A DNA stretch of 40,826 nt from contig DBNU01000178.1 in assembly GCA_002299125.1 (NCBI GenBank), positions 735-41,560 of the forward strand. The letters are read 5' to 3'. This stretch comes from Proteobacteria bacterium UBA664 (GTDB taxonomy: Bacteria > Pseudomonadota > Gammaproteobacteria > UBA7966). The notes beneath the pieces are model-generated. The model was not told the origin of the DNA. It worked only from the letters and a program-made list of their open reading frames with translations, and ran no database searches. Below are positions 744 through 21,051 of the stretch, in pieces (position 1 is the first letter of the stretch; each line of letters opens with the position of its first letter). Both the position numbers and the translations under genes were made by a program.

Positions 744-1679
744 TCAGCTCCTTTCGCTGAGGAGACCGAGGGCGATGGCCGTGGCTGCGGTGCGGGTTTC
801 CACTCCGAGCTTGATGAAGATGTGCTCCAGATGCTTCTCGATGGTCCGCGGAGATAACCCGAGGATCTCGGCGACGTCACGGTTGGTCTTGCCACGGGCC
901 ACCCACACGAGGACCTCGGTCTCTCTGACGGTGAGACCGAAGGCCTCCTCGAGGCGGCCACGCGCCTCCGTTGGCTGGGACTCCAGGACAAGCAGCCATT
1001 CGTTCTCGAATGCCCGGCCCGCATGGTGCACATGCAGCGTGCCTGCTGGCGTCTCGACGCGCAGGCAAGGCAGCCCGCAGTGCGCATCCGCGATGTGCTC
1101 GCCGTCCCGGATCATCCATTGCACGATGCCCGTGGGAAGGTGTCGTTCAGAGCCGAGCGGAGGCCCAAGCCAGTGGTCGATGAGCGCGAGGGCCCGGCCC
1201 GTGGCCCAGGTGATGGTGCCGTCGCTCCGGCACATCACGGCACGACTCCCCAGTGCGCGCATCGATGCCTCGGCACGACGGGAGAGTCGGGATTTGGCGA
1301 TGTGGGCCGAGAGCCGGGCCAGCAGTTCACGCTCGTTGATGGGCTTGACGATGTAATCGACTGCCCCTTCACCAAAGGCGCGTTCGATGTCCACGGCCGC
1401 AGCCAGGGCAGTGATGAACAGGATCGGCACATCGGCCGTCCTGATGGAAGTCTGCAGTCGATGGCAGACCTCGAATCCGTCGAGGCCCGGCATGAGGACA
1501 TCGAGCAGGATGGCATCCGGCCTCAGGGTCTCGACCAGCGCAAGCGCACTGCTGCCGTCACGGGCGTCGAGTACGGCATAGCCGGCATCGGAGAGCAAAT
1601 CTCGCAGGAGATCGACGCTGGCCGCGGCGTCATCCACAACCAGCACCGTTCCCTTTGCTGGGGGCGAGACGTGACTCAT
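744..1679 (-). CDS. Response regulator: receiver domain, a roughly 110-aa PAS-like middle region, and a LuxR/FixJ-type HTH
   Basis: N-terminal REC motifs (VLVVDD, DAILLDVLMPGLDG, KP). C-terminal LuxR HTH (LTVRETEVLVWVARGKTNRDVAEILGLSPRTIEKHLEHIFIKLGV). The start overlaps the stop of the upstream kinase by 4 nt (1676-1679). Confidence 0.85.
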   Translation of the reverse strand: MSHVSPPAKGTVLVVDDAAASVDLLRDLLSDAGYAVLDARDGSSALALVETLRPDAILLDVLMPGLDGFEVCHRLQTSIRTADVPILFITALAAAVDIERAFGEGAVDYIVKPINERELLARLSAHIAKSRLSRRAEASMRALGSRAVMCRSDGTITWATGRALALIDHWLGPPLGSERHLPTGIVQWMIRDGEHIADAHCGLPCLRVETPAGTLHVHHAGRAFENEWLLVLESQPTEARGRLEEAFGLTVRETEVLVWVARGKTNRDVAEILGLSPRTIEKHLEHIFIKLGVETRTAATAIALGLLSERS

Positions 1680-4600
1680 GTGGTCGTGCGGGTTTGAACC
1701 ACTGTGGCAGCTCCCGCAGAGGAGGCCGGTCGCAACATGGACTCGCTGCCACGATAGCTCCAGTCGAGATCGAGCAACCTTCCGACCACCTGCAGCAGCA
1801 GCAACTCGTCTACCGGCTTGCGCACGTAACTTCTATAGTGCTCCCCGCTCGATCCCAGGTCCGGGGGCGGGCTGGCGGTGACCAGGATCACGGGGATGGT
1901 GAGGCCGCTGGCGTCGAGCGCCTCCAGGGTGGACAGACCGTCCCGGCCAGGCATGGTGAGATCGAGCAGTATCAGATCGGGACGCTGACGGGCTACGGAG
2001 GCGAGGCAATTGTCGCCGTCACCGGCCTCCTCGACCAGAAAGCCGACTCCCTCGAGCAGACTCTTGAGGATCTGGCGCTGCGGTGCCTCGTCGTCGACGA
2101 CAAGTAAGCGACGGCGCAGTCCCAGGTACTCATCCGGGAGCCGGGCGAGATATCCGGGGGGGCGCCCACCGAATCCCCGCACCTCAGGCAGGAACAGTCG
2201 GAACTGAAAGACCGAGCCGCCATCCGGGTTGCTGCGTATTTCCAGTGCGCCGCCCATCAGTTGCACGAGCATCCGGCTGATGGTCAGGCCGAGCCCGACG
2301 CCGTTGCCGCCATCCGCCGGGGTGTTTCGTCCGCGCTGGAAGGCATCGAAGATGCGCTCCGCATCCTCAATGGGAATGCCTGGACCGGAGTCGATGACCT
2401 GGAACAGCGTGAGCTCCCGGGCACAATCGAGCCGCAGGATCACGGCACCGATCGCGGTGAACTTGACCGCATTGGATATGAGATTGATCAGCACCTGCCG
2501 CAATCTCAACTCATCCACCCGTACCCGCCCCGGCATGCGTCCGTGCACGATCAATGACAGCTGGATGCCGCGACTGTCGGCATCCGGCTGGAACATCTGC
2601 ACCACCTGATTGCAGAGCTGGAGCAGGTCGACCTCCTCCGGGTGCAACTGGAACTTGCCGGCCTCGATGCGCGCAAGATCGAGGATGTCGTCGAAGAGAC
2701 TCACGACGTGCTCACCGGACTGAAGGATCACCGCCAGCTCGCGTCGGCGCTCCTCCGGCAATTCCTGGTCCCGCAGCCCACGGCGGGCGTAGCCGATGAT
2801 GCTGTTGAGAGGATTGCGGACCTCATGGCTCATGTCGGAGAGGAAGCGGCTCTTCGCTTGCGAGGCCGTCTCGGCCATCTTCTTGGCTACCTGAAGGGCG
2901 GCATCCGCCTTGCGCCGCTCCTCGATCTCGTTCAGCAGCAGGGCTGTCTGTCGCCTTGATTCCTCCTGCGCAACGATCCGCGTCTCCCGGTTGAGCACAG
3001 CCCACCACCCCGAGATCGCGACGAAGAGCAACAACAGGAGCAACAGTTGCCTGAGGATCTCACTGGTAACGACTTGGGAATGACTGAGTTCGACCAGTGA
3101 AGGCTCGTAGGCAGCAAACAGGAGGCTGACGGCACCGCCGCAGAGCAGGAGCACCAGCAGATAATGCCGCAGCACCACCGGGCCGCGACGTGGCCGCTCC
3201 CACGGCGCAGGCTCATCCAGCTCCTGCTCCGGGCGAGAGCGGCAAGGACGTTTGCAGAGGTCCTCACAGCGCGCATCGAGCGTGCAGCAGAGAGAGCAGA
3301 TGGGCCCAGCATAGGCCGGGCACATCGCCATGTCCTCGCGCTCGAAGCGATTGTTGCAAATACAGCAGGCGAGACTGGCGGCGCTGGTCCCGGCCAGTGC
3401 ATCCGGGCGCGCCAGATAGTAGCGGCCGCCGGTCATCCAGGCGATCGACGGGACGAGGAGAACGGCGGCTGTCAGGGCGACCAGCGAGGCAAAGGCCTGA
3501 GGCCAGATCCCGAACCAGCCCGCGTGGGCGGCGATCCCGAGGAGCGAGCCTACCAAGGTGGCGAGGGTGCCGACCGGATTGATGTCATGCAGGTAGGCGC
3601 GACGGAACTCGATTGATGGCGGACTGAGGCCGAGCGGCTTGTTGATCACGAGATCGGAGACCAGGGCGCCGAACCAGGCGATCGCCACGCAGGAGAACAG
3701 GCTCAGCACCTCTTCGAGCGCCTTGAACACCCCCATATTCATGAGTAGCAGCGCGAGTGCCACATTGAAGGTGAGCCAAACGACGCGTCCCGGGTGGCTG
3801 TGCGTCAGTCTGGAGAAGAAGTTCGACCATGCCAGCGAGCCAGCGTAGGCATTGGTTACGTTGATCTTCACCTGCGAGAGCACCACGAAGACCAGGGTGG
3901 CGAGCAGCGCCAGGTCCGGGCTCGGGAACAGATAGCCGAAGGCCACGAGGTACATACGGGTCGGCTCCATGGCGGGGCCTGATCCGAACTCATGCTGAAT
4001 CACGACGAAGGCGAGGAAGGCGCCCGCAAGCTGCTTGAGCACGCCGGGTACCACCCAGCCAGGTCCCCCGGCGATGGTGGCGCTCCACCAGATGAATGAG
4101 CGGCCGGCACGTCGTTCGGGCATGAAGCGTAAAAAATCCACCTGCTCGCCAATCTGGGCGATGAGGGAGAAGCAGATCGTCATCGCCGCGCCAAAGGCCA
4201 GGGGATCGAAGGCGAGGCCACTCGGTCCCTCACCCTGGAAGCTCGCCCATTGAGTGAAGAGCTCAGGTCGCTCAGCCCAGATCGCCACAAAGGGCAGGAT
4301 TGCGAGCGGGAGCCAGACCGGGAAGGTCCAGAGCTGGAAGCGGCTGATGAAGGTGACGCCGTAGGCCACCATCGGAACGATGGCGATTGAAGAGACCAGG
4401 TAACCCCAGGCAACAGGCAGCCCGAAGTAGAGCTCGAGCATCAACGCCATGATCGCCGCCTCGATGGCGAAGAAGATGAAGGTGAACGAGGCGTAGATGA
4501 GCGAGGTGATGGTGGATCCGATGTAACCGAAGCCTGCCCCACGGGCGAGCAGATCGATATCCACGTTGAAGCGTGCCGCGTAGTAGCAGATCGGCAGGCC

Positions 4601-4867
4601 CGCAAGAAAGACAACCAGTGCGGTCACCAGGATGGCAGCGACGGCATTGGTGAAGCCGTAGCGCACGAAGACAGTGCCGCCGATGGCCTCGAGGGCCAGG
4701 AAGGAGACGGACCCAAGTGCGGTCCCCGCGACTTGCCACTCGCTCAGGGTACGGAAGGAGCGTGGCGCGAAGCGGAGCGCGTAGTCCTCGAGGGTCTCAG
4801 TCGCGACCCAACTGTTGTAGTCGCGCCGGATCCGGAAGATTCGCTGAGACGGGGCGTTCATCGCCAT
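1676..4867 (-). CDS. Hybrid sensor histidine kinase with an N-terminal CodB/NCS1-like permease domain, a Cys-rich module, 2 extra TM segments, HisKA, HATPase and a C-terminal receiver (about 1063 aa)
   Basis: The ORF runs 1676..5053. I place the start at the ATG at 4867 (MAMNAPSQ) because AGGAGA lies 6 nt upstream. The multi-TM N-terminus has permease-like motifs (IGEQVDFLRFMPERR; SQVKINVTNAYAGSLAWSNF). H-box SDMSHEVRNPLNS is at about 2822-2839. G-boxes DSGPGI and GVGLGLTIS are present. REC motifs are LLVVDDE and DLILLDLTMPGRDG. No HPt-like segment follows the REC domain. Confidence 0.85.
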   Translation of the reverse strand: MAMNAPSQRIFRIRRDYNSWVATETLEDYALRFAPRSFRTLSEWQVAGTALGSVSFLALEAIGGTVFVRYGFTNAVAAILVTALVVFLAGLPICYYAARFNVDIDLLARGAGFGYIGSTITSLIYASFTFIFFAIEAAIMALMLELYFGLPVAWGYLVSSIAIVPMVAYGVTFISRFQLWTFPVWLPLAILPFVAIWAERPELFTQWASFQGEGPSGLAFDPLAFGAAMTICFSLIAQIGEQVDFLRFMPERRAGRSFIWWSATIAGGPGWVVPGVLKQLAGAFLAFVVIQHEFGSGPAMEPTRMYLVAFGYLFPSPDLALLATLVFVVLSQVKINVTNAYAGSLAWSNFFSRLTHSHPGRVVWLTFNVALALLLMNMGVFKALEEVLSLFSCVAIAWFGALVSDLVINKPLGLSPPSIEFRRAYLHDINPVGTLATLVGSLLGIAAHAGWFGIWPQAFASLVALTAAVLLVPSIAWMTGGRYYLARPDALAGTSAASLACCICNNRFEREDMAMCPAYAGPICSLCCTLDARCEDLCKRPCRSRPEQELDEPAPWERPRRGPVVLRHYLLVLLLCGGAVSLLFAAYEPSLVELSHSQVVTSEILRQLLLLLLLFVAISGWWAVLNRETRIVAQEESRRQTALLLNEIEERRKADAALQVAKKMAETASQAKSRFLSDMSHEVRNPLNSIIGYARRGLRDQELPEERRRELAVILQSGEHVVSLFDDILDLARIEAGKFQLHPEEVDLLQLCNQVVQMFQPDADSRGIQLSLIVHGRMPGRVRVDELRLRQVLINLISNAVKFTAIGAVILRLDCARELTLFQVIDSGPGIPIEDAERIFDAFQRGRNTPADGGNGVGLGLTISRMLVQLMGGALEIRSNPDGGSVFQFRLFLPEVRGFGGRPPGYLARLPDEYLGLRRRLLVVDDEAPQRQILKSLLEGVGFLVEEAGDGDNCLASVARQRPDLILLDLTMPGRDGLSTLEALDASGLTIPVILVTASPPPDLGSSGEHYRSYVRKPVDELLLLQVVGRLLDLDWSYRGSESMLRPASSAGAATVVQTRTTT

Positions 4868-5048: not shown

Positions 5049-5065
5049 TGCACCAGTCCGGTGCC
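5049..5065. promoter_or_regulatory. NtrC-like dyad TGCACCAGTCCGGTGCC
   Basis: Matches the enterobacterial NtrC consensus TGCACCA-N3-TGGTGCA at 12 of 14 specified positions with the correct 17-bp geometry. It sits 21 nt upstream of the sigma54-like -24 GG at 5086-5087. Confidence 0.35.
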
Positions 5066-5084
5066 TACAGCCGAAGGGATGCGT

Positions 5085-5100
5085 AGGCCTGCGTATTGCC
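5085..5100 (+). promoter_or_regulatory. Candidate sigma54 (-24/-12) promoter for urtA1
   Basis: Sequence is AGGCCTGCGTATTGCC. GG at 5086-5087 and GC at 5098-5099 are exactly 12 nt apart, and the -12 element reads TTGC. It lies about 90 nt upstream of the urtA1 start. Confidence 0.4.
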
Positions 5101-5160: not shown

Positions 5161-5186
5161 TCGGCCCGCAGGAAGAGACATGGGAG

Positions 5187-6419
5187 ATGAACATGACACG
5201 CAACAACCGACCCCGGGGCCTGTACACGGCCCTCGGCACAGCGCTCCTTACATTGGCCGCCGCGCATGCAGCGGATCATCCGACCGCTGCAGTGAACACC
5301 ACTGGACTTGCAGTCACTGACACCACCGTAGTGGTCGGTCAGCTGCACTCGGCAACCGGGACGATGGCGATCAGCGAGACCGGATCCATTCAGGCCGAGC
5401 AACTCGCCATCGCTCAGATCAATGCGATGGGCGGCGTCCTTGGGCGCAAGATCGAGGTCATCCAGGAGGATGGGGGAAGCGACTGGCCGACCTTTGCCGA
5501 AAAGGCGCGCAAGCTGCTCGTGAACGACAAGGTAGCAGCGGTCTTCGGCTGCTGGACCTCAGCCTCGCGGAAGGCAGTGCTGCCGGTCTTCGAGCGGGAG
5601 AACTCGATGCTCTATTACCCGACCTTCTATGAGGGGCTGGAGCAATCGAAGAACGTCATCTACACGGGGCAGGAAGCCACCCAGCAGATCCTCGCTGGCC
5701 TGGACTGGATCGCCAAGGAGAAGGGTGCGAAGACCTTCTTCCTCGTCGGGTCAGACTACATCTGGCCGCGCACGTCCAACAAGATCGCGCGCAAGCACAT
5801 CGAGAACGTGCTCAAGGGGACCGTGGTGGGCGAGGAGTACTACCCACTCGGGCACACCAACTTCGGTTCGCTCATCAACAAGATCAAGCTGAAAAAGCCC
5901 GACGTCATCTACTCCATCGTCGTAGGCGGATCGAACGTGGCCTGGTGGAAGCAGCTCAAGGCCGCTGGTGTCACACCGGACAAGCAGACGATCCTGACCA
6001 TCTCCGTTACCGAGGACGAGGTACTCGGCATCGGTGGCGAGAATGTCGAGGGACACTACTCCGCGATGAAGTACTTCCAGAGCCTGGACAACGACAACAA
6101 CAAGGCCTTCGTCAAGGCATTCAAGGAGAAGTATGGCGCGGACTCGGTGATCGGAGATGTCACCCAGGCAGCCTACCTCGGTCCCTGGCTGTGGAAGGCC
6201 GCGGTCGAAAGGGCCGGGAGCTTCGACGTCGACAAAGTTGCCGCGGCATCTCCTGGCATCGAACTGACAACCGCGCCGGAAGGCTACGTCAAGATCCACG
6301 AGAACCATCACCTGTGGAGCCGCCTGCGCATCGGCCAATGGCAGCGAGACGGGCAGGCGAAGGTTCTGCACGAAAGCGAACTCCTCGAACCCAATCCCTT
6401 CCCGGAGGGTTACCAGTAG
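5187..6419 (+). CDS. urtA: Urea/short-chain-amide ABC transporter substrate-binding protein (UrtA/FmdD-like), copy 1
   Basis: Signal peptide MNMTRNNRPRGLYTALGTALLTLAAAHA. UrtA-type motifs are shared with copy 2 (HSATGTMAISE, VFGCWTSASRKAVLPVFE). GGGAG lies just upstream, so an alternative start is the ATG at 5193. The in-frame ORF upstream of 5187 overlaps the kinase gene region and is not credible coding sequence. Confidence 0.85.
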   Translation: MNMTRNNRPRGLYTALGTALLTLAAAHAADHPTAAVNTTGLAVTDTTVVVGQLHSATGTMAISETGSIQAEQLAIAQINAMGGVLGRKIEVIQEDGGSDWPTFAEKARKLLVNDKVAAVFGCWTSASRKAVLPVFERENSMLYYPTFYEGLEQSKNVIYTGQEATQQILAGLDWIAKEKGAKTFFLVGSDYIWPRTSNKIARKHIENVLKGTVVGEEYYPLGHTNFGSLINKIKLKKPDVIYSIVVGGSNVAWWKQLKAAGVTPDKQTILTISVTEDEVLGIGGENVEGHYSAMKYFQSLDNDNNKAFVKAFKEKYGADSVIGDVTQAAYLGPWLWKAAVERAGSFDVDKVAAASPGIELTTAPEGYVKIHENHHLWSRLRIGQWQRDGQAKVLHESELLEPNPFPEGYQ

Positions 6420-6634
6420 CGATACCCGCCAGCGACCACCCATGCCTGAGTCCGCGAACGGACAAGTGGTACATGGCGCAGGGCGTGGCAGGGAGTCGGT
6501 GCAGCGAGTGGCATTGCCGCCCGCCCGTGAAGCAGGAGTTCGCGCGGGGCTCTGTGGGGGGCGGCAACGCCGAGGAACATCGACGTGATCAAGGCAGTTG
6601 TTCGTTCAAGAACCTGACAAGAGGAGAAGCGAGA

Positions 6635-7558
6635 ATGGAAGGACTCACACTGGAGGAATTCGGGGCGATCCTCGTGATGCAGGGCTTCAATGGTCTGTCC
6701 TACTTCTGCGTTCTCCTGCTCATGGCGCTCGGGCTTGCGATCATCTTCGGGCAGATGGGGGTCATCAACATGGCGCACGGAGAATTTCTCACAATCGGTG
6801 CCTATGCAACGTTCCTGCTCTCCTGGCTGTCGGAACACTATGCCCCATGGTTCATGCCCTACTACTTCCTGCTCGCGGTCCTTCTTGGATTCGCGGCTGC
6901 CTTCGCCGTTGGACACCTGACGGAACTCGCCCTGATACGACACCTGTACCGCCGACCTCTCGACTCCCTGCTCGCGACCTGGGGTCTCGCTCTCATCATG
7001 CAGCAGGGATTTCGTTCACTGTTCGGCGCGCGTGAGGTCAGTGCCACCTTGCCGGACTGGCTGCTCGGCTCGTGGCAGCCGGTGAGCGGAATTGATATCC
7101 CCCTGAATGGCCTCTTCGTCATGGCACTGACCATGCTGCTGACAGCAGGCGTTCTGATTCTGACCTACCGGTCCAGGTGGGGTCTGCAGATGCGCGCAAC
7201 CACGCAGAACCGGGTGATGGCCGGTGCCGTGGGCATCGATACACAGCAGGTAGATCGCTTCACCTTCGCGCTTGGTTGCGGAATAGCGGGGGTTGCCGGT
7301 GCAGCCTTCACGACCATCGGCTCGACCGGGCCGACCAGTGGGTCCCTGTACATCGTCGACACCTTCCTGGTCGTGGTCTTCGGTGGCGCCCAGAGCATGC
7401 TGGGGACGGTGGCCTCCGCATTCTCCATCGCACAAGCGTCATCGATTCTTGAATTCTTCATGACGGGATCCATGGCAAAAGTGAGCGTTCTTCTGACCAT
7501 CATCGTCATTCTGATGATGCGTCCGGAGGGGCTTTTCCGAGCGAATGTACGCAGATAG
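6635..7558 (+). CDS. urtB: Urea/amide ABC transporter permease (UrtB-like, short form, about 307 aa), copy 1
   Basis: Branched-chain-amino-acid-type permease motifs (GLAIIFGQMGVINMAHGEF, TQNRVMAGAVGI). GAGGAG lies 8 nt upstream of the ATG at 6635. The ORF portion 5945-6634 is an upstream read-through. Confidence 0.85.
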   Translation: MEGLTLEEFGAILVMQGFNGLSYFCVLLLMALGLAIIFGQMGVINMAHGEFLTIGAYATFLLSWLSEHYAPWFMPYYFLLAVLLGFAAAFAVGHLTELALIRHLYRRPLDSLLATWGLALIMQQGFRSLFGAREVSATLPDWLLGSWQPVSGIDIPLNGLFVMALTMLLTAGVLILTYRSRWGLQMRATTQNRVMAGAVGIDTQQVDRFTFALGCGIAGVAGAAFTTIGSTGPTSGSLYIVDTFLVVVFGGAQSMLGTVASAFSIAQASSILEFFMTGSMAKVSVLLTIIVILMMRPEGLFRANVRR

Positions 7559-7566: not shown

Positions 7567-8862
7567 ATGACCCAAGCACCAAGGCACGAGGACACGCCAA
7601 TGGACCGAGCCACCGGAATCACACTACGCATTCTTCGCGGTCATGCCGATCTCATCATCCTGGCCGTGCTCATCCTGATCGTGCTGCCACTGATGCTGGA
7701 TATCTTCCGGCTGAATCTGGTTGGCAAGTATCTCACCTACGCCTTCGTGGCCGTAGGCATCGTGCTCTGCTGGGGTTACGGTGGGATTCTGAGCCTCGGC
7801 CAAGGGGTGTTCTTCGGCCTTGGTGGTTACTGTATGGCCATGTTCCTCAAGCTCGAGGCATCGGATCCCGCGAGCACGTCCATCCAGTCGACTCCCGGGA
7901 TCCCGGATTTCATGGACTGGAATCAGCTTACGGAACTGCCCTGGTTCTGGGAGCCTTTCCATAGTTTCGCCTTCACGCTGTTCGCAGTCCTTGCGGTGCC
8001 AGGCATTCTCGCCTTTGTGGTTGGACTCGCGATGTTCAAGCGCAGGGTAGGGGGGGTGTACTTCGCGATCATCACGCAGGCCGTTGCCGCGATCCTCAGC
8101 ATTCTCATCATCGGTCAGCAGGGGTACACCGGTGGCGTCAATGGGATAACGGATCTAAAAACGCTGTTGGGATGGGACATCCGGACCGACTCGGCAAGAT
8201 ACGCCTTGTACTTTCTGAACGGTGCCTTGCTGCTTACGGTACTGGTAGTGGCGCGACTCATCATCGGCAGCAAGTTCGGGAAGCTCCTCGTGGCACTACG
8301 GGACCGCGAGGATCGTGTGCGCTTCTCGGGCTATGACGTCTCCAACTTCAAGATCTTCATCTTCGTCGTTGCCGCGATGATGGCGGCAGTCGGCGGCGCC
8401 ATGTTCACGCTGCAGGTCGGCTTCATGTCGCCCTCCTTCGTGGGCGTGGGGCCCTCGATCGACATGGTGGTCTTTGCCGCCGTCGGGGGCCGCATGTCAC
8501 CCGTCGGTGCCGTCTACGGCAGCCTCCTGGTGAATTGGGCGAGGACGGCCTTCTCGGAGAGCTTCCCGGAGCTATGGCTGCTGGCGATGGGTGCAATCTT
8601 CATCGGAGTAGTGATGCTGTTCCCGAACGGACTGGCCGGGATGGTCGATGGTATGAAAGGGGGCTTCATCCGCTCGACCGCGCGGCTAGGCGGTCCAACT
8701 GGTGCATCCAGGGGTGCCCCTGTACCCGATCAGTGGCCGGTTGGTAGGCCAAGGGCACCGACGGCATGCGAGAGGGGCGCCCTTGAGCCCGGCGGATCAG
8801 TCAGCGTCACGGGACCGAGCGATCATGACCTGGCGGATCGTCAAGGCTCGTTGGCTCATTGA
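7567..8862 (+). CDS. urtC: Urea/amide ABC transporter permease (UrtC-like), copy 1, with a roughly 60-70 codon atypical C-terminal tail
   Basis: Permease core motifs GILSLGQGVFFGLGGY and ALRDREDRVRFSGY. The homologous UrtC2 ends shortly after its LPRGLVG motif. Here the frame stays open for a further 70 or so codons rich in rare codons (AGG, CTA, GTA, TCA, GGA, CAA). Confidence 0.8.
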   Translation: MTQAPRHEDTPMDRATGITLRILRGHADLIILAVLILIVLPLMLDIFRLNLVGKYLTYAFVAVGIVLCWGYGGILSLGQGVFFGLGGYCMAMFLKLEASDPASTSIQSTPGIPDFMDWNQLTELPWFWEPFHSFAFTLFAVLAVPGILAFVVGLAMFKRRVGGVYFAIITQAVAAILSILIIGQQGYTGGVNGITDLKTLLGWDIRTDSARYALYFLNGALLLTVLVVARLIIGSKFGKLLVALRDREDRVRFSGYDVSNFKIFIFVVAAMMAAVGGAMFTLQVGFMSPSFVGVGPSIDMVVFAAVGGRMSPVGAVYGSLLVNWARTAFSESFPELWLLAMGAIFIGVVMLFPNGLAGMVDGMKGGFIRSTARLGGPTGASRGAPVPDQWPVGRPRAPTACERGALEPGGSVSVTGPSDHDLADRQGSLAH

Positions 8863-8881
8863 TCGAGGGGAGGAGGCGATC

Positions 8882-9622
8882 ATGGACAAGCGGATCGTGC
8901 TCGCGGTTGAGGATCTTGGAGTCACCTTCGATGGGTTCAAGGCGGTGGATGGTGTGAACCTCTACGTCGAACAGGACGAGATGCGAGTCGTCATCGGACC
9001 GAACGGGGCTGGGAAGACCACGCTCCTCGACCTGATCTGCGGTCGCACCAGGGCGAGTTCCGGAAGTATCCGCTTCCTGGATCGAGAGCTGACGCAGATC
9101 CCCGAATACAGAAGGGTGCGGCTCGGTGTCGGGAGGAAGTTCCAGAACCCGTCGATCTACGAATCGCTGACCGTTCTGGAGAATCTCGAAGTGAGCTATC
9201 CCCGCGGCAGGACGGTCTTCGGCAGCCTCGCATTCAAGCGCACGCCGGAAGTGCTGCAGCGGATCGAGGAGGTGGCTGCAATGGTCTACCTCGGCGATCT
9301 GCTCCAGGTTGCCGCGGAGACCTTGTCTCACGGCCAAATGCAGTGGCTGGAGATCGGCATGCTGCTGATGCAGGAGCCGCAACTGCTGATGCTCGATGAG
9401 CCGGTCGCCGGCATGAGCGTCAGCGAACGCCAGGCAACGGCTGAGCTGCTGCAACGGATCTGCAAGGGACGTTCGGTGGTGGTCATCGAACATGACATGG
9501 ATTTCGTGAGGAGCATCGCCCATCGCGTGACGGTGCTGCATCAAGGCAAGGTCCTCGCGGAGGGAAGTATGGCCAAGGTGCAGGCGGACCCGAGGGTCGT
9601 CGAGGTCTATCTGGGCCACTGA
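8882..9622 (+). CDS. urtD: Urea/amide ABC transporter ATP-binding protein (UrtD-like), copy 1
   Basis: Walker A GPNGAGKTT, signature-like LSHGQMQWLEIGMLL, Walker B LLMLDEP. GGGGAGGAGG lies 6-15 nt upstream of the ATG at 8882. An in-frame ATG at 8825 is an alternative start. Confidence 0.85.
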   Translation: MDKRIVLAVEDLGVTFDGFKAVDGVNLYVEQDEMRVVIGPNGAGKTTLLDLICGRTRASSGSIRFLDRELTQIPEYRRVRLGVGRKFQNPSIYESLTVLENLEVSYPRGRTVFGSLAFKRTPEVLQRIEEVAAMVYLGDLLQVAAETLSHGQMQWLEIGMLLMQEPQLLMLDEPVAGMSVSERQATAELLQRICKGRSVVVIEHDMDFVRSIAHRVTVLHQGKVLAEGSMAKVQADPRVVEVYLGH

Positions 9623-9635: not shown

Positions 9636-10325
9636 ATGATGCTCGAGGTCAATGGACTCAGCGTGGCGTATGGGCAGAGCGAGGTGGTGCACGATCTGAG
9701 CTTCGCGGTCGGGACGGGCGAGATTGTGGCGCTCATGGGGCGCAACGGCATGGGCAAGACGACGACCTTCAAGGCGCTCATGGGCATCCTGGGCATCCGG
9801 TCAGGGTCGGTGAGGGTGAATGGGCAGGAGCTCTCGGCGAGTGCCCCACATCAGCGAGTACGCAGTGGTCTGGCATACGTGCCTCAGGGCCGGATGATCT
9901 TCCCGAATCTGACTGTGAGGGAGAACATCATGACGGGGCTGCAGACGCGCGCCTGCGCCATCCCGCAGGACGTCTTCACCCTGTTTCCGGTGTTGCTGGA
10001 GATGAGTCAGAGACGAGGTGGCAATCTTTCGGGGGGGCAGCAGCAGCAGCTCGCGATCGCCCGGGCACTCACGACGAATCCCAGCGTCCTGCTGCTGGAC
10101 GAACCGACTGAGGGCATCCAGCCCTCGATCATCAAGGACCTCGCGCGGGTGCTCAAGGAGATCCGCACTCTGCGTGGGCTGACGATTGTCGTTTCTGAGC
10201 AGGTCCTTTCCTTTGCCCTGGCCGTCGCGGACCGCCTGCTTGTCATAGAACGCGGACAGATCGTCGATGAGGTCACGGCCATGAGCGGTGCTGCGGAAAG
10301 AGTGAGTCGCTACCTGTCGGTCTGA
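9636..10325 (+). CDS. urtE: Urea/amide ABC transporter ATP-binding protein (UrtE-like), copy 1
   Basis: Walker A GRNGMGKTT, LSGGQQQQLAIARAL, Walker B LLLDEPTEG. GGAGG lies 7 nt upstream of the start. Confidence 0.9.
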   Translation: MMLEVNGLSVAYGQSEVVHDLSFAVGTGEIVALMGRNGMGKTTTFKALMGILGIRSGSVRVNGQELSASAPHQRVRSGLAYVPQGRMIFPNLTVRENIMTGLQTRACAIPQDVFTLFPVLLEMSQRRGGNLSGGQQQQLAIARALTTNPSVLLLDEPTEGIQPSIIKDLARVLKEIRTLRGLTIVVSEQVLSFALAVADRLLVIERGQIVDEVTAMSGAAERVSRYLSV

Positions 10326-10413
10326 CCAGTTGCGAGAAGCGGCATGCGCTGGCGAGGGGCATCCAGCGCGGTGGCCGAAACCGTGTCGCCCCACATCATG
10401 AGGAGATGCGCAG

Positions 10414-11646
10414 ATGGCCGAGACACTCATTCGGGTCGACCTGAACGAATCGCCCTACAAGAACGACATGGTGCACAATCGCTGGCACCCGGACATACCC
10501 ATCGTCGCGTGGGTGAAGGCGGGCGATGAGTTCATCCTCGAGACCTACGACTGGACTGGAGGGTACATCCAGAACAACGACAGCGCCGACGATGTGCGCG
10601 ATGTCGACCTCACTACAGTGCACTTCCTTTCCGGGCCGATTGGCGTGCAGGGCTGCGAGCCGGGCGATCTGCTGGTGGTCGATTTGCTCGACGTGGGTGC
10701 CAAGCCCGAGAGCCTCTGGGGCTTCAATGGATTTTTTTCCAAGAAGAACGGGGGTGGCTTTCTCACTGACCACTTTCCCCTCGCCCAGAAGAGCATCTGG
10801 GACATCAGCGGGATGTTCACACACTCTCGCCATGTCCCCGGGGTGCGCTTTGCAGGGCTCATCCACCCGGGACTCATCGGCTGCCTCCCGGACAAGGCCC
10901 TGCTCGATACCTGGAATCAGCGCGAGCGGGCCCTGATTGCGACCGCGCCGGACCGTGTGCCACCGCTAGCCTGTCCGCCCTTCGCAGCGACCGCGCACAT
11001 GGGCCGCCTCACGGGCGACGCTGCGGCAAATGCGGCATCCGAGGCTGCGCGTACCGTGCCGCCTCGTGAGCATGGCGGTAATTGTGACATCAAGGACCTC
11101 TCGCGTGGCTCACGGATCTACTTCCCGGTGTACGTGCCGGGTGGTGGACTGTCCATGGGCGATCTGCACTTCAGTCAGGGCGATGGTGAGATCACCTTCT
11201 GCGGTGCCATCGAGATGGCCGGATGGCTACATCTTCGCTGCTCCGTGATCAAGGGCGGCATGGCGAAGTACGGGATCCGCAATCCCATCTTCAAGCCGAG
11301 TCCGATCACCCCTAGGTACGATGACTACCTGATTTTCGAGGGTATCTCGGTAGACGAGGGCGGAAGGCAGCATTACCTCGACGTCCACGTCGCCTACCGG
11401 CAGGCATGTCTCAACGCCATCGCCTATCTGACGAAGTTCGGCTACAGCCCGGCGCAGGCCTATGCGATCCTCGGTACCGCTCCCTGTCAGGGTCACATCA
11501 GCGGAGTGGTCGACATTCCGAACGCCTGTGCCACGCTTTGGCTCCCGACCGACATCTTCGACTTTGATGTGATGCCGGGAAGTGCAGGGCCGTCAAGGCA
11601 GGTCTTTGGTGGAGTCGACATCCCGATGTCGCCCGATCGTGCCTGA
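10414..11646 (+). CDS. fmdA: Formamidase / acetamidase-family amidohydrolase (FmdA)
   Basis: The N-terminus (HNRWHPDIPIVAWVKAGDEFILETYDWTGG, NNDSADDVRDVDL, HFLSGPIGVQGCEPGDLL) closely follows my recollection of Methylophilus FmdA. It is 410 aa long. GAGGAG lies upstream. Confidence 0.85.
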   Translation: MAETLIRVDLNESPYKNDMVHNRWHPDIPIVAWVKAGDEFILETYDWTGGYIQNNDSADDVRDVDLTTVHFLSGPIGVQGCEPGDLLVVDLLDVGAKPESLWGFNGFFSKKNGGGFLTDHFPLAQKSIWDISGMFTHSRHVPGVRFAGLIHPGLIGCLPDKALLDTWNQRERALIATAPDRVPPLACPPFAATAHMGRLTGDAAANAASEAARTVPPREHGGNCDIKDLSRGSRIYFPVYVPGGGLSMGDLHFSQGDGEITFCGAIEMAGWLHLRCSVIKGGMAKYGIRNPIFKPSPITPRYDDYLIFEGISVDEGGRQHYLDVHVAYRQACLNAIAYLTKFGYSPAQAYAILGTAPCQGHISGVVDIPNACATLWLPTDIFDFDVMPGSAGPSRQVFGGVDIPMSPDRA

Positions 11647-11657
11647 GGATCCGTGAC

Positions 11658-11993
11658 ATGCCAGTTTACGAGTACCTGTGTGCGGGATGCGGGGGCTTCG
11701 AGGAGGCCCGCCCCATGAGCGAGAGTGCCCTGCCTGCCACCTGCCCCAAGTGTGGCAACCTGGCGCAGCGGGCGGTGCTGACGCCAGTCGGTGCGGCATT
11801 GATGGATCCGGGCAAGCGACGCGCGCACACCACGAACGAGCGCAGTCGCTCGGTGCCGCAGCTTGCAAGTCAGCGACACGGGGCAGGCTGCAGTTGCTGC
11901 CGGTCAGCGAATGCTCCTCCAGCATCCGAGGCGCGCGCCACAGTACCCACCAAGTCCTTCCCGCTGGCCCGCCCCTGGATGATCAGTCACTGA
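11658..11993 (+). CDS. fmdB: FmdB-family zinc-ribbon putative regulatory protein
   Basis: The start reads MPVYEYLCAGCGGFE followed by ATCPKCG (CxxC ... CxxC zinc ribbon). It begins 11 nt downstream of fmdA, the classic fmdA-fmdB arrangement. Confidence 0.8.
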   Translation: MPVYEYLCAGCGGFEEARPMSESALPATCPKCGNLAQRAVLTPVGAALMDPGKRRAHTTNERSRSVPQLASQRHGAGCSCCRSANAPPASEARATVPTKSFPLARPWMISH

Positions 11994-12659
11994 CGATTCG
12001 GTGTCCTGATCTCACTCGACCAGAAGGCTGGCGGGCAGTCAACCTGTGATTGCTCGCCAGCAGCTTCTGATCTGGCAGCGGTCCCCGGGAGCCAACGGCG
12101 GCCTGCTGTCGGTAGCGTGGTGCTCACGCCCCGAATGGCAGGTCGCACTCCCGTTGACCACCGGGACAGCGCATGTCGGTCTGCCCAGCCTGCATGGCGC
12201 TTTGCACAGGAACGTCGACGCGTGAGCCTCCCCGTGGATGCGTCGGAGGTCCGGTGCCGATTCCCTGGTCGTCAATCTCGAATCCAGCGGAACATCAATG
12301 CCGATGGGCGTCCCCTAATGTACTGACGGCCGCAAGGCGCAGCGCATCGCAACCCTTGATCATGCACTGCGCAGCACAAGGTGGCCCGAGAGGGGTGCGC
12401 TGAGTGCAGGCCGCTTCGGGTCGCAAATGGGAATTGTGGAGCGCATCCGCGTGCGGGACCCATCTGCAAGGGCGTCATGCATCTGCTTGCGTGCGCCGTG
12501 CATCGGGCGACTGAACCTGGGTGTACGACGATGGCGCGCACCGATAAAGGGCGTTATCTGACCTCTTAAGCGCACTAATGGTGCGTCGATGAATGCGGCC
12601 TTCTCGCAGCGGGCCCGCGTATCCATTGCAAGGGATTCGAGATCATCACAAGCAGACCA

Positions 12660-12676
12660 TGGCACGTATCTCGCAG
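12660..12676 (+). promoter_or_regulatory. Sigma54 (-24/-12) promoter candidate for the porin gene
   Basis: Sequence is TGGCACGTATCTCGCAG. GG at 12661-12662 and GC at 12673-12674 are 12 nt apart, and the -24 element is a perfect TGGCAC. It lies about 75 nt upstream of the ATG at 12751. Confidence 0.55.
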
Positions 12677-12750
12677 CGCACAGGATGAGGACGGGGTGTT
12701 TCCCGCCCGCGGCTGCCGCCGCGTCTTCAGGAACGCAGGAGATATCAACC

Positions 12751-13974
12751 ATGAGAACGTCGAGAATGGCATCAGCAATGAATGCGCTGATGCTCATGCT
12801 GCCCGTGGCACTGGCCAGCAGCGGTGCGCAGGCCGCCGCGAAAATCGAGGTCGACGAGGACACCTGGGTGTCGGTAGGGGCGGGTGCACGGCCGGTCTTC
12901 CGCAGTATCGAGAACCGGGCACCATCTGGGGATGGCCGATCGGCGGACTTTGGGATCCAGAGTGCACGTATCTACGTCAACGGGCAACTGAACAAGTTTC
13001 TGAAGTTCGAGTTCAACACGGAGTGCATCTTCTGCGAGGCAGGCGAAGCCTTCGCGGCCTATGAGCCACTGCATCTCCTCGACGCCATCGCCAAGTTCGA
13101 GTTTACGCCGGCCTTCAACCTGTGGGCGGGGCGAATGCTCACGCCATCGAATCGCGCAGAGCTCGCCGGCCCCTACTTCATGGTCGCCTTCGACTTCCAG
13201 AGGACACCGTTCTACCCATCGGACTTCAGTCTTCAGTTCGGTACGGGAGGGGCCGGGGTCTATGCGCGTGACGACGGCGCGACGGCATGGGGCGGCTTGG
13301 GACCTGAGGGACGCTTCCGCTACGTGGTTGGTATGTACAACGGCCTGGAGAGTGCCGCCACCTTTGGCCCCAACCAAGAGGAGAGCGTTCTGCTCGGTGG
13401 ACGCTTCGAGTACCAGTTCCTCGGCATCGAGGACAACCCCGGTTACTACAAGAGCGGAACCTACTATGGCAACGCCGGTGATGTCTTCACCGTGGGTTAC
13501 GTGGTTCAGCACCAGGCGGATGGTGTCGGATCCTTCCGCAATCCCGGTGACTTCCTCGGCATGAACGTGGACGTGCTCTTCGAAAAAGTACTGCCGGCCG
13601 GCGTGCTCACCATGGAGGGCGAGTACAAGTGGTTTGACTCCAACTTCAACGTGGCCGCATTCGCTGATCCGGATTGCTTCTGCATGTTCGATGGCGACAG
13701 CTACCATGCGACTGCTGCGTGGTTGTTCGCGCAGCCGGTCGGATGGGGGAAGCTCCAACCCTACGTTCGGTATACGGCGATCGCGCCAAACGTCGGACAG
13801 GAGACGGATGAGGTGGATGTGGGCATCAACTACATCATCGATGGGCACAACGCCCGCATGTCAGTGTTCTATCAGCACGGAGAGATCAACAGCGGGAGCC
13901 AGGTCAACTTCAACCCCGCCGCGCGCTTCGAGGAGGTAGGGTCGATCAATGTGGGCTTCCAGATGCAGATCTAG
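12751..13974 (+). CDS. Outer-membrane porin, FmdC-like (short-chain amide/urea porin)
   Basis: Signal peptide MRTSRMASAMNALMLMLPVALASSGAQAAA with AGGAGA 9 nt upstream. The sequence is beta-strand-like with alternating aromatic and Gly-rich stretches, and the gene sits in an fmd/urt context. The ORF upstream of 12751 is not credible coding sequence. Confidence 0.7.
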   Translation: MRTSRMASAMNALMLMLPVALASSGAQAAAKIEVDEDTWVSVGAGARPVFRSIENRAPSGDGRSADFGIQSARIYVNGQLNKFLKFEFNTECIFCEAGEAFAAYEPLHLLDAIAKFEFTPAFNLWAGRMLTPSNRAELAGPYFMVAFDFQRTPFYPSDFSLQFGTGGAGVYARDDGATAWGGLGPEGRFRYVVGMYNGLESAATFGPNQEESVLLGGRFEYQFLGIEDNPGYYKSGTYYGNAGDVFTVGYVVQHQADGVGSFRNPGDFLGMNVDVLFEKVLPAGVLTMEGEYKWFDSNFNVAAFADPDCFCMFDGDSYHATAAWLFAQPVGWGKLQPYVRYTAIAPNVGQETDEVDVGINYIIDGHNARMSVFYQHGEINSGSQVNFNPAARFEEVGSINVGFQMQI

Positions 13975-14004
13975 ATGGCAGGGGTCGGAGAGGGCTGCTC
14001 GAAG

Positions 14005-14021
14005 CGGCACCGGGCTCGCAG
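14005..14021 (+). promoter_or_regulatory. Sigma54 (-24/-12) promoter candidate for urtA2
   Basis: Sequence is CGGCACCGGGCTCGCAG. GG at 14006-14007 and GC at 14018-14019 are 12 nt apart. It has the same GGCAC-N5-CTCGCAG core as the porin promoter and lies about 76 nt upstream of the ATG at 14097. Confidence 0.5.
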
Positions 14022-14096
14022 ACGCAGGTGGGTGGCTGTTCCGGCACCCAGAGATGAATTCAGTCCACTACCCAAGGCTCCCAGGAGACCGATGAT

Positions 14097-15380
14097 ATGA
14101 AGAACAGCTTCAAGATGATGTCCATTGCCACAGCCCTGGCCCTGTACGTTCCGGCCTGTCTGGCCGCAGGAGATACGATCAGGGTGGGGGTGTTGCATTC
14201 GCTGTCCGGGACCATGGCCATCAGTGAGACCACGCTGAAGGACACGGTCCTCATGATGGTCGAGGAGCAGAACAAGGCGGGAGGCCTGCTGGGGAAGAAG
14301 CTGGAGGCGGTGGTGGTGGACCCTGCATCGAACTGGCCCCTCTTCGCCGAGAAGGCGCGCGAGCTGCTGGAAAAGGAGAAGGTGGACGTGGTGTTCGGCT
14401 GCTGGACCTCCGTGTCCAGAAAATCAGTCCTGCCGGTATTCGAGGAGCTGAACGGCCTGCTCTTCTACCCGGTGCAGTACGAGGGGGAGGAGTCTTCCCG
14501 CAATATCTTCTACACGGGGGCGGCACCCAACCAGCAGGCCATCCCGGCCGTCGACTATCTGATGAATGATCTCAGCGTCAAGCGCTGGGTCCTTGCCGGG
14601 ACAGACTATGTCTACCCCCGCACCACCAACAAGATCCTCGAGGCCTATCTCAAGGCCAAGGGGGTCGCCGCTGAGGACATCCTGATCAATTACACGCCCT
14701 TCGGGCATGCCGATTGGCAGAGCATCGTGGCGGATGTCCGCAAGTTCGGCAGTGCCGGTAAAAAGACTGCCGTGGTCTCGACCATCAATGGCGATGCCAA
14801 TGTTCCGTTTTACAAGGAGCTGGCTAACCAGGGCATCAAGGCGACGGATATTCCGGTGGTCGCGTTCTCGGTGGGTGAAGAAGAGCTTTCCGGCCTGGAT
14901 ACCAAGCCGCTGGTCGGGCATCTCGCCGCCTGGAACTACTTCCAGAGCGTGGAGACACCGGAGAATGCCGCGTTCATCAAGCGATGGAAGTCCTTCATCA
15001 AGGACGACAAGCGGGTGACCAATGACCCGATGGAGGCGCACTACATCGGCTTCAAGATGTGGGTCAAGGCCGTCGAGAAGGTCGGGACGACGGACCCCAC
15101 GAAGGTCGGGGAGGCCCTTATCGGGGTGACCGTGCCGAACCTGACTGGTGGGTTCGCCACCATGTTCCAGAATCACCACCTCTCCAAGCCCGTGCTGATC
15201 GGCGAGATTCAGGAGGATGGGCAGTTCGCCATCGTCTGGGAGACTCCCGATGTGGTGATCGGCGATGCCTGGTCGAATTTCCTCGATGGCAGCAAGGACA
15301 TCGTGGCCGACTGGACTTTCCCAATCTCATGCGGGAACTTCAACATCCGCACCGGGAAGTGCTCAGGGCAGAGCCAGTAA
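14097..15380 (+). CDS. urtA: Urea ABC transporter substrate-binding protein UrtA, copy 2
   Basis: Signal peptide MKNSFKMMSIATALALYVPACLAAG. Motifs HSLSGTMAISE, VFGCWTSVSRKSVLPVFE and NHHLSKPVLIGEI. AGGAGA lies 8 nt upstream. Confidence 0.9.
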   Translation: MKNSFKMMSIATALALYVPACLAAGDTIRVGVLHSLSGTMAISETTLKDTVLMMVEEQNKAGGLLGKKLEAVVVDPASNWPLFAEKARELLEKEKVDVVFGCWTSVSRKSVLPVFEELNGLLFYPVQYEGEESSRNIFYTGAAPNQQAIPAVDYLMNDLSVKRWVLAGTDYVYPRTTNKILEAYLKAKGVAAEDILINYTPFGHADWQSIVADVRKFGSAGKKTAVVSTINGDANVPFYKELANQGIKATDIPVVAFSVGEEELSGLDTKPLVGHLAAWNYFQSVETPENAAFIKRWKSFIKDDKRVTNDPMEAHYIGFKMWVKAVEKVGTTDPTKVGEALIGVTVPNLTGGFATMFQNHHLSKPVLIGEIQEDGQFAIVWETPDVVIGDAWSNFLDGSKDIVADWTFPISCGNFNIRTGKCSGQSQ

Positions 15381-15442
15381 GACCTCTGGCGAGTGTTCTG
15401 GGCGAGGCTCCGGGGGCTCAGCCCCCCCGGAGCACAGGCGGC

Positions 15443-19707: not shown

Positions 19708-19868
19708 GATCGGGAGGCAGGGCGGCACGCTCTACACGCATCCCCATCCTGAGCGCTGGCGGGGTGCGAGCGGCACGAGGACATTCCCTGTGCCAGGAGT
19801 CTATTCCCAGCTTGCCGACGCTGCCGAATTCGTTGGCGTGTGATGACTGCTGCGGCGTGTACTGACCG

Positions 19869-20687: not shown

Positions 20688-20745
20688 GCGGGTTTCGCGT
20701 GCGCGGCCCCACCCTCTGCCTGCATGCACTCATGAGGAGAAGCCA

Positions 20746-21051
20746 ATGGAGTTGACCCCACGAGAACGCGACAAGCTGCTCATCTTCACGGCCGCGCTGG
20801 TGGCGGAGCGCCGGCGGGCCCGGGGCCTCAAGCTGAATTATCCCGAATCCGCGGCGCTCATCTCCGCGGCGATCCTCGAGGCGGCACGGGATGGCCTCAC
20901 GGTGGCGGCGGCCATGCAGCTTGGGCGCTCGATCCTCACGGTGGACGACGTGATGCCGGGCATACCTGAGCTGCTGCAGGAGGTGCAGGTGGAGGCCACG
21001 TTCCCGGATGGGACCAAGCTCGTGACCGTGCATAATCCGCTTGGTCAATGA
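20746..21051 (+). CDS. ureA: Urease subunit gamma
   Basis: [34 protein letters not shown] is a canonical UreA N-terminus. GAGGAG lies 7 nt upstream. The protein is 101 aa. Confidence 0.95.

Follow-up and report, generated by a model that had tools for sequence, protein, structure and literature searches.

A CodB-like transporter domain fused to a histidine kinase beside urea and amide uptake genes: a candidate sensor for the urt-fmd cluster

Results

The kinase-regulator gene pair

In a 40,826-nucleotide stretch of contig DBNU01000178.1 from Proteobacteria bacterium UBA664 (hereafter the window), a hybrid sensor histidine kinase and a response regulator are encoded on the minus strand, divergently from urtABCDE, fmdA and fmdB genes of the urea and short-chain amide type. 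The kinase start was read from the sequence as the ATG at 4867, with AGGAG 7 nt upstream. The two genes and the domains of the kinase are as follows.

1676..4867, minus strand: hybrid sensor histidine kinase, 1063 aa (open reading frame (ORF) and translation, ribosome-binding site, Pfam)
3428..4867, minus strand: residues 1-480, LeuT-fold, CodB-like sensor/transporter domain with 12 transmembrane (TM) segments (hydropathy, AlphaFold2, Foldseek, hhalign, conservation)
3233..3385, minus strand: residues 495-545, Cys-rich module, cytoplasmic by inference from the 12-TM topology (invariant Cys)
2984..3175, minus strand: residues 565-628, TM13-TM14 hairpin between the Cys-rich module and the kinase (hydropathy; AlphaFold2 helices 562-594 and 598-639)
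2657..2983, minus strand: residues 629-737, coiled-coil linker and HisKA (DHp) domain (PF00512 at 671-737, E 1.2e-19)
2189..2515, minus strand: residues 785-893, HATPase_c catalytic domain (PF02518, E 2.1e-25)
1778..2110, minus strand: residues 920-1030, C-terminal receiver (REC) domain with no Hpt after it (PF00072 at 922-1025, E 1.3e-18)
744..1679, minus strand: response regulator, 311 aa (Pfam; AlphaFold2 pLDDT 89.6)

An earlier note, made from this sequence without database searches, had described the kinase as a multi-TM permease followed by a Cys-rich module, two more TM helices, a coiled coil, HisKA, HATPase and a receiver, and our analysis recovered the same layout. Hydropathy placed 12 TM segments in residues 46-476 and two more at 569-587 and 607-625, in agreement with the AlphaFold2 model, and showed a hydrophilic, Cys-rich stretch of about 90 residues between the 12-TM part and the last two segments. 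The N-terminus is basic; if it is cytoplasmic, the Cys-rich stretch and the kinase both lie in the cytoplasm. A Pfam scan of the full kinase gave the predicted PF00512, PF02518 and PF00072, all far above their cut-offs, which makes the protein a hybrid kinase of the HisKA type. As also predicted, PF01627 (Hpt) was absent at E ≤ 1; a tail of 38 residues follows the receiver, and no exhaustive scan for small Hpt proteins elsewhere in the window was made. The protein retains its catalytic residues. The phospho-acceptor His681 lies in SHEVRNP, the motifs NLISNA, DSGPGI and GVGLGL are read as the N, G1 and G2 boxes, and the receiver contains D925/D926, the phospho-acceptor Asp969 and Lys1017. The kinase core scored best against TorS-type models, although below their cut-offs.

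The stop codon of the kinase and the start codon of the regulator share 4 nt (ATGA), as the note had stated, within the sequence ACATGAGT (...ACC ACA TGA / ATG AGT...), and the regulator is translationally coupled to the kinase through this overlap. The regulator has the features of the NarL/FixJ (LuxR-type) family: a receiver (Pfam Response_reg at 12-123, 96 bits; Asp60; DNA 1305-1652) and a LuxR/GerE helix-turn-helix (HTH) domain (PF00196 at 249-302, 58.6 bits; DNA 765-947), and its Foldseek matches included StyR and FixJ, both full-length. The usual REC-linker-HTH layout does not include the middle domain, which is about 100 aa long (aa ~143-238, DNA 966-1253). The note had called it PAS-like. 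The AlphaFold2 model fits this label, with a beta-beta-alpha-alpha-beta-beta-beta topology at 146-236 (pLDDT 63-91), but neither a hidden Markov model (HMM) nor a fold search confirmed it: no Pfam or NCBIfam model matched, and the fold search with the whole protein was dominated by matches to receiver domains.

The N-terminal domain has a CodB-like LeuT fold outside the recognizable NCS1 family

The note had proposed that the first 480 or so residues are an NCS1-like permease and had predicted a PF02133 match at aa 20-470. This match was not obtained in Pfam scans of residues 1-667 at E ≤ 10 or of the full protein at E ≤ 1, and PF02133 was not among the families listed for 42 diverse homologues. 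Residues 1-640 had no NCBIfam match at E ≤ 10, and no PDB chain matched the N-terminal part at E ≤ 10, whether the query was the single sequence (phmmer) or a family profile restricted to the N-terminal part (hmmsearch). A profile that included the kinase part returned only kinases.

The structure comparison with CodB and Mhp1 suggested in the note had a different outcome. Residues 1-640 were modeled by AlphaFold2 with the help of 50 homologues (pLDDT 80.7, pTM 0.82), and the top Foldseek match of the model was CodB (7qoa) (E 1e-8, TM-score 0.72 normalized to the target, 19% identity), with Mhp1 next (three entries, target-normalized TM-scores 0.65-0.67; CodB and Mhp1 identities 16-19%). CodB and Mhp1 occupied ranks 1-5, at E 1e-8 to 5e-7, and other LeuT-fold families (BasC, NIS, SiaT, SGLT2, Nramp and ApcT) followed one to four orders of magnitude behind (E ≥ 7e-6). 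The note would have given up the NCS1 idea if neither an HMM nor a structural match was found; since a structural match to CodB and Mhp1 exists, the idea survives in a narrower form.

A faint sequence signal points in the same direction. When a profile of 42 diverse family members was aligned with E. coli proteins by hhalign, CodB (NCS1) was matched weakly, with 42% probability and E 2.6e-4, over 206 columns in register across TM1-TM6. This alignment pairs DLLTRGAGFGYxGS with HLLARFSFGVKGS, and DYLRF with DFVRF; the weak in-register similarity thus takes in the DF(L/V)RF motif after TM6. The allantoin transporter AllW, also of NCS1, reached 1.8% probability and was out of register, and PutP (SSS) reached 0.17%. 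Membership in the SSS family was considered and rejected, on the basis that no SSF Pfam match was found, PutP scored 0.17% and SSS structures ranked below NCS1 structures in Foldseek. The JGI annotation of homologues as 'purine-cytosine permease-like' reflects the same faint signal as the CodB similarity. On the model and these alignments, the domain is best described as a CodB-like LeuT fold that forms a separate family, not a recognizable member of NCS1. CodB (7QOA) and Mhp1 (2JLN) are the best structural neighbors of residues 1-480; in contrast to them, the present family lacks PF02133, has its own conserved motifs and is fused to a signaling output in every full-length member examined.

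Conserved core motifs and an eight-cysteine module

The two motifs quoted in the note, IGEQVDFLRF (239-248) and SQVKINVTNAYAGSLAWSNFF (331-351), were found at these residues and are nearly invariant among homologues. They belong to a larger set of near-invariant blocks. RRxYNxWVA and EDYALR lie toward the N-terminus. SFLALEAIGG is assigned to TM1; GSTITSLIYASFTF, within the family block DLLTRGAGFGYxGSTITSLIYASFTFIFFA, to TM3; QIGEQVDFLRF, within SLIAQIGEQVDxLRF, to TM6; and SQxKINVTNAYAGSLAWSNFF, within SQxKINVTNAYAGSLAWSNFFSRxTHxHPGRVVW, to TM8. GPGW and VAIAWxGAxVADLVINKPLGL are also near-invariant. In LeuT-fold transporters, TM1, TM3, TM6 and TM8 form the central substrate and ion site. The near-invariant blocks lie in the segments that we assign to these four helices.

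The Cys-rich module follows the pattern CxxC-x11/12-C-x7-CSLCC-x5-C-x3-C(K/R) in nearly all full-length representatives examined. In the window kinase, the spacing is CxxC-x11-C-x7-CSLCC-x5-C-x3-CK (segment 501-538), and the eight invariant cysteines are C501, C504, C516, C524, C527, C528, C534 and C538. AlphaFold2 modeled short beta-strands here at a pLDDT of about 60-70. The module is presumed to bind metal, as a Zn ribbon-like site or a cluster.

A compact family found joined to output domains

A word-indexed search with residues 1-628 gave more than 5000 matches, the best of which, from Burkholderiales, Bradyrhizobium, Pseudomonas and many filamentous cyanobacteria, are 53-83% identical over about 99% of the query. 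When one genome per GTDB species was scanned by pattern, the 640-aa module was found in at least 600 species, with identities of 53-64% from Proteobacteria to Cyanobacteria. With the N-terminal-only profile, HMMER was run exhaustively against 1.84 billion representatives clustered at 50% identity and returned only 2117 proteins at E ≤ 1e-3, many of them fragments. By these sequence measures, the family is compact and slowly evolving, not a corner of the huge NCS1 family.

Among the best 150 of the 2117 proteins, full-length representatives were all 800-1780 aa long. We surveyed the output domains of 42 diverse representatives and found HisKA in 30, HATPase_c in 29, REC in 22, Hpt in cis in 5, GGDEF in 6, EAL in 5 and SpoIIE in 2. 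PAS or GAF domains are often inserted in the C-terminal parts, and cyanobacterial members contain HATPase_c with no HisKA match. Because every full-length member examined is fused to an output, and the module has been shuffled among output types, it behaves as a sensory input module. One apparent stand-alone permease, from Bradyrhizobium diazoefficiens (locus L089, 8001-11374), proved to be a split gene that encodes 645 aa and 410 aa (HATPase and REC), and other short homologues look like fragments. The HisKA region of the split gene falls in the gap, which may represent a frameshift, a pseudogene or an assembly error.

Genomic neighborhood

Upstream of the kinase, across an intergenic region of 313 bp, lie the following genes.

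5181..6419, plus strand: urtA-type periplasmic binding protein, amide/urea type (TIGR03407, 527 bits, above cut-off; start at 5181 or 5193)
~6500-7558, plus strand: urtB (TIGR03409, above cut-off; start not fixed)
7567-8862, plus strand: urtC (TIGR03408, above cut-off)
~8860-9622, plus strand: urtD (TIGR03411, above cut-off; start not fixed)
9636-10325, plus strand: urtE (TIGR03410, above cut-off)
10414..11646, plus strand: fmdA, formamidase (NF045496, 755.6 bits, cut-off 500)
11658..11993, plus strand: fmdB, zinc-ribbon protein (NF053663 and TIGR02605)
12589..13974, plus strand: outer-membrane porin, ExtI/FmdC-like, about 600 nt downstream of fmdB (NF040900, E 1.4e-17, under cut-off)

The note had listed urtA1, fmdA, fmdB and a porin as the divergent neighbors. 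The urt, fmd and porin genes are indeed present, but the set is a full urtABCDE followed by fmdA and fmdB. The assignment to a Urt/Fmd urea and short-chain amide cluster is given by the UrtA-E and FmdA equivalog models, all above curated cut-offs, and by the domain models that FmdB matches. A second, paralogous urtABCDE set follows the porin, with urtA2 at 14097-15380 (TIGR03407, 568 bits), and the ORFs after it fit a urease cluster (a ureC-sized ORF at 21403-23103 and a UreG-like CobW domain at 24456-25112; whole region 14097-25112). Two Urt importers are thus encoded in the window, the first associated with formamidase and the second with urease.

The note had also proposed that homologues should show conserved linkage to urt or fmd genes. 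This was strongly borne out when the window's own proteins were used as tblastn queries against the 80 best genome loci. In 65 of the 80, the sensor has urt, fmd or ure genes within 10 kb. Where at least 1.5 kb of upstream sequence was available, 50 of 73 loci had a divergent urtA (>70% identity), and where at least 7 kb was available, 44 of 61 had fmdA. The regulator immediately followed the kinase in 65 of 71. Porin homologues occupy the same position in loci L001, L003 and L010. Carriers include Alphaproteobacteria (Bradyrhizobium, Xanthobacter, Methylocystaceae), Betaproteobacteria (Methyloversatilis, Burkholderia, Paraburkholderia, Achromobacter, Bordetella, Thauera, Polaromonas) and Gammaproteobacteria (Pseudomonas oryzihabitans, Alcanivorax, Cellvibrio, Nevskia), and Cyanobacteria are represented as well. 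The nearest relative of the window (83% identity, JGI metagenomes) shares even the purF-cvpA-dedD-folC-accD-trpA flank.

The arrangement varies among lineages. The upstream neighbor of the sensor is ureC in Comamonadaceae and Methylibium, and Methylobacillus, Nevskia and Hydrogenophaga have a porin-urtABCDE set downstream of it. The Bradyrhizobium locus additionally has an aliphatic amidase. In the cyanobacterium Leptolyngbya NIES-3755, a REC-MarR protein serves as the partner of the sensor, and genes for CN_hydrolase, FmdA, a Zn-ribbon protein and UrtABCDE come next; since the amide/urea genes are kept here despite a changed type of kinase and regulator, the linkage follows the sensor and not the output. 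Sensors linked to fmd/urtA1 differ consistently from those linked to ure/urtA2 at only three positions, all conservative (L/M 249, L/V 402 and F/Y 508). These few differences therefore give no evidence of separate urea and amide subtypes, which fits one shared ligand class.

Two loci carry duplicated sensors. A Hylemonella metagenome-assembled genome (MAG; locus L035) has two tandem kinase-regulator pairs (10001-14282 and 16846-21260), only the first of which adjoins urtABCDE-fmdAB, which suggests paralogous expansion, possibly with different targets. In a Leptolyngbya MAG (locus L008, 5640-11929), two divergent sensor copies lie side by side, with fmdA beside one of them.

A recurrent palindrome between the kinase and urtA

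A 16-bp palindrome with the consensus TACGTCAATTGACGTA recurs in the intergenic regions between the kinase and urtA, usually 100-180 nt upstream of the urtA start. The window copy is a candidate operator.

5080..5095, no strand assigned: candidate operator TGCGTAGGCCTGCGTA, 101 nt upstream of urtA, matching TRCGT-N6-RCGTA

The pattern TRCGT-N6-RCGTA was present in 38 of 54 orthologous kinase-urtA intergenic regions, as compared to 0.075 regions per set in shuffled sequences, and it occurs once in the 40.8-kb window, where 0.09 occurrences are expected by chance. A relaxed form of the pattern has two more window matches, both inside genes, which we took as chance. The Bradyrhizobium variant is TACGCGATCTTGCGTA. 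In L071 and L044, which have a different gene order, the regulator is followed by the porin/urtA operon, and the motif precedes this operon by about 200 nt; in L036, L029 and L014 the motif lies just upstream of the kinase. The strict motif is absent upstream of the second, urease-linked urt set in the window. As read from the sequence, half-sites 10 bp apart would suit a dimeric regulator of the LuxR/NarL type.

Elements reminiscent of nitrogen control were also observed in this region. An NtrC-like site at 5049-5065 (TGCACCAGTCCGGTGCC, one mismatch to TGCACC-N5-GGTGCA) was set aside, as it is indistinguishable from chance in this GC-rich window. A sigma-54-like GG-N10-GC element (AGGCCTGCGTATTGCC, 5085-5100), spotted by eye only, overlaps the candidate operator, and GGTGCA/TGCACC-like elements recur in the Bradyrhizobium and Methyloversatilis intergenic regions. 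Such elements, which are not statistically significant in the window, would fit ammonia repression.

Discussion

A proposed two-component system for urea or short-chain amides

We consider it likely, if by no means certain, that the kinase-regulator pair is a dedicated two-component system that induces the divergent urtABCDE-fmdA-fmdB genes in response to urea or a short-chain amide such as formamide; the downstream porin gene is perhaps induced as well. The earlier note had suggested urea, a short amide or a nucleobase-derived compound as ligand. The link to amide and urea genes in the survey supports the former, but nothing was found in support of a nucleobase.

The following sequence of events can be envisioned. 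Urea, formamide or another C1-C3 amide would bind in the central pocket formed by TM1, TM3, TM6 and TM8 of the CodB-like LeuT-fold domain. The resulting conformational change, of the type that occurs in transporters, would be passed through the eight-cysteine, probably metal-binding module and the TM13-TM14 hairpin to the coiled coil and DHp domain, where it would alter autophosphorylation at His681. Because the kinase contains no Hpt domain, His681 might serve Asp60 of the regulator directly, in which case the receiver of the kinase (Asp969) would be an intramolecular modulator or a phosphate sink, or the phosphoryl group might travel by way of an unlinked Hpt protein. A dimer of the phosphorylated regulator would then bind the palindrome at 5080-5095 and activate urtA transcription.

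Several observations weigh against this proposal. The ligand is suggested by the gene neighborhood alone, and about 15 of the 80 loci have no amide or urea genes nearby, some of them having unrelated neighbors; a Pantanalinema homologue likewise lacks nearby amide/urea genes. A simple model of ligand binding gives the eight invariant cysteines nothing to do, and the hybrid kinase has no Hpt of its own through which to pass phosphate to the regulator. The window operator diverges from the consensus, consisting of two TGCGTA hexamers 10 bp apart and not a clean palindrome. The motif was, moreover, derived post hoc from a set that included the window. Since the pattern is post hoc and the window copy is degenerate, the operator is a prediction and not a demonstration. 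The strict motif was missing from the ureC-linked Comamonadaceae loci, and a sigma-70 promoter scan of the kinase-urtA intergenic region recognized no promoter. Finally, in line with the note, which could not tie an NCS1-type fusion to a characterized system, a search of the full-text literature, which did not reach subscription journals, yielded no functional study of any family member. One 2026 genome report merely draws the gene pair beside urtABCDE/fmdA (PMC13296017).

A wider proposal, which we make more tentatively and with confidence just short of even, concerns the approximately 640-aa unit as a whole (the CodB-like LeuT fold, the CxxC...CSLCC...C...C module and the TM hairpin). This unit may be an undescribed, ancient, transporter-derived sensory module for urea and C1-C3 amides that has been plugged into histidine kinase, c-di-GMP (GGDEF-EAL) and PP2C outputs from Proteobacteria to Cyanobacteria. 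In the window it would be the missing substrate sensor of the fmd/urt genes, and the Cys module would be a new, metal-dependent coupler between a rocking-bundle transporter and a kinase. Transporter-fused kinases are known; the present one has a different transporter lineage for which no model exists, a unique eight-cysteine coupler, modular outputs and a strongly predicted physiological role.

Alternative explanations

It is possible that the LeuT-fold domain is still an active secondary transporter of urea or amides and that the kinase reads transport flux or cycling instead of occupancy, as has been proposed for CbrA and histidine. Such a transceptor would be consistent with a 12-TM LeuT fold that is kept complete, as modeled with high confidence, and with the very strong conservation of the core helices (53-64% identity across phyla). 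However, a high-affinity ABC importer and a porin are already available from the locus, and no unfused copy was found among the full-length representatives in the best 150 of 2117 proteins, which would be unusual for a useful transporter; the one apparent stand-alone copy that was checked is the split gene. There is also a precedent, Ks-Amt5, for a kinase-fused transporter domain that binds its ligand without transporting it (PMC8534201). We therefore regard a transporting sensor as unlikely. A different view would make the transporter part an anchor or secondary input and place the primary signal in the cytoplasm, where the eight-cysteine module could read a metal (Zn, Ni or an Fe-S cluster) or redox state, or the PAS-like domain of the regulator could detect some other cue. 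The eight cysteines are invariant in every output class, the regulator has its extra PAS-like domain, and urease, which requires Ni, appears to be encoded nearby (ureC 21403-23103). Nevertheless, conservation of the TM core surpasses even that of the Cys module, as would not be the case for a mere anchor, the linkage is to amide/urea uptake and hydrolysis genes and not to metal or redox genes, and, as we read its family, FmdA-type formamidase does not belong to the Ni enzymes. A cytoplasmic cue thus appears improbable.

Direct binding of the solute would also be unnecessary if the kinase detected ligand-loaded UrtA or the activity of UrtBCDE, as in LuxP/LuxQ, TorT/TorS or BceAB/BceS. The directly adjacent and divergent urtA in 50 of 73 loci suggests this arrangement, as do the below-cut-off TorS-type scores of the kinase core. 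We judge it more improbable still, given that the periplasmic loops, at most about 35 residues long, offer little docking surface, that conservation sits in the buried core and not in these loops, and that members fused to GGDEF-EAL or SpoIIE, as well as loci without urt genes, exist. Detection of a nucleobase-derived compound by an NCS1 nucleobase-type permease fused to the kinase would agree with CodB and Mhp1 as the nearest structures and with the JGI label of the homologues. It is nonetheless highly improbable, because PF02133 is unmatched, AllW aligned out of register at 1.8%, and no purine or pyrimidine catabolic neighbors were found in the 80 loci among the genes probed.

Relation to known systems

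Among the closest known systems are CbrA/CbrB of Pseudomonas and the CrbS/MxtR-type kinases, in which the N-terminal sensor is likewise a LeuT-fold transporter domain and the kinase governs genes for nutrient uptake and catabolism. CbrA is an SSS-fused kinase whose partner is a sigma-54 activator, and it is a precedent for a transporter-sensor that transports. The sensor of CbrA, CrbS and MxtR belongs to SLC5/SSS, whereas that of the window kinase does not (PutP, 0.17% in hhalign). Furthermore, the window kinase is a hybrid with a receiver, has the eight-cysteine module and the TM hairpin inserted between transporter and kinase, and is paired with a REC/PAS-like/LuxR regulator instead of a sigma-54 activator. 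AmiC/AmiR of Pseudomonas aeruginosa resembles the proposed system in that a short-chain amidase operon is induced by its substrate via a dedicated amide sensor. AmiC, however, is a soluble receptor, similar to periplasmic binding proteins, that sequesters the antiterminator AmiR, so that no kinase, membrane sensor or DNA-binding output is involved. VirA of Agrobacterium has the same HisKA-HATPase-REC arrangement without Hpt and is encoded beside its cognate regulator, VirG. Its receiver modulates the kinase, and the phosphate passes directly from His to VirG. The VirA sensor is unrelated (a periplasmic domain that works with ChvE, plus a linker), and 5 of the 42 diverse members of the present family have Hpt in cis. 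By analogy with VirA, direct transfer may occur in the window kinase.

In Ks-Amt5 of Candidatus Kuenenia stuttgartiensis, an Amt domain is fused to a histidine kinase and binds its ligand without efficient translocation (PMC8534201). Here too, a domain of transporter origin has been turned into the receptor of a small nitrogen compound, but it has the Amt fold and trimeric Amt architecture, not the LeuT fold, and no Cys-rich module. The fmdCABDEF cluster of Methylophilus methylotrophus resembles the window genes in its formamidase FmdA, the FmdB zinc ribbon, the porin FmdC and an Urt-like amide/urea ABC transporter. Unlike in the window, no two-component system has been described for that cluster, and FmdB is the only regulator proposed for it (PMC10781810). 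In an uncultured Methylobacillus genome (L071), however, the kinase-regulator pair described here lies upstream of porin-urtABCDE.

Implications

In soil, water and host-associated habitats, nitrogen circulates to a major extent as urea and small amides. No sensor has been known for the substrate-specific induction of urt and fmd genes, only general nitrogen control and a vague 'FmdB regulator' having been proposed. A conserved and readily recognized set of sensor, regulator and operator would make this regulation directly testable in Bradyrhizobium, Burkholderia, Achromobacter, Pseudomonas oryzihabitans, methylotrophs and cyanobacteria. If the proposal is correct, the domain would add a second case, independent of the SSS-fused kinases, in which a LeuT-fold transporter has become a receptor, and its eight-cysteine coupler and choice of outputs would help to study how the conformational cycles of transporters are converted into signals. 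A urea- or formamide-inducible expression switch might also be derived from it, which is relevant to the use of formamide as a biotechnological nitrogen source (PMC10781810). In addition, a family found in at least 600 species has no Pfam or NCBIfam model.

Other observations on the locus

FmdB (11658-11993) is small and Cys-rich and combines the FmdB zinc ribbon (CxxC_CxxC_SSSS) with the NCBIfam 'RPWMISH' domain, and its gene is co-transcribed with fmdA in most loci. A functional or physical link between this protein and the Cys-rich module of the kinase would be pure speculation. Four long ORFs on the minus strand at 28481-34151 (769, 435, 343 and 296 aa) had no Pfam match at E ≤ 1e-6 and, given the 65% GC content of the window, may be spurious antisense ORFs. 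A partial formate-tetrahydrofolate ligase gene (39451-40824, minus strand) runs off the window about 27 kb from fmdA; its product could assimilate the formate released by formamidase, a link that is uncertain given the distance. Between fmdA and this gene lie genes for a PEP carboxylase (34256-37027) and an HDOD-domain protein (37402-38406).

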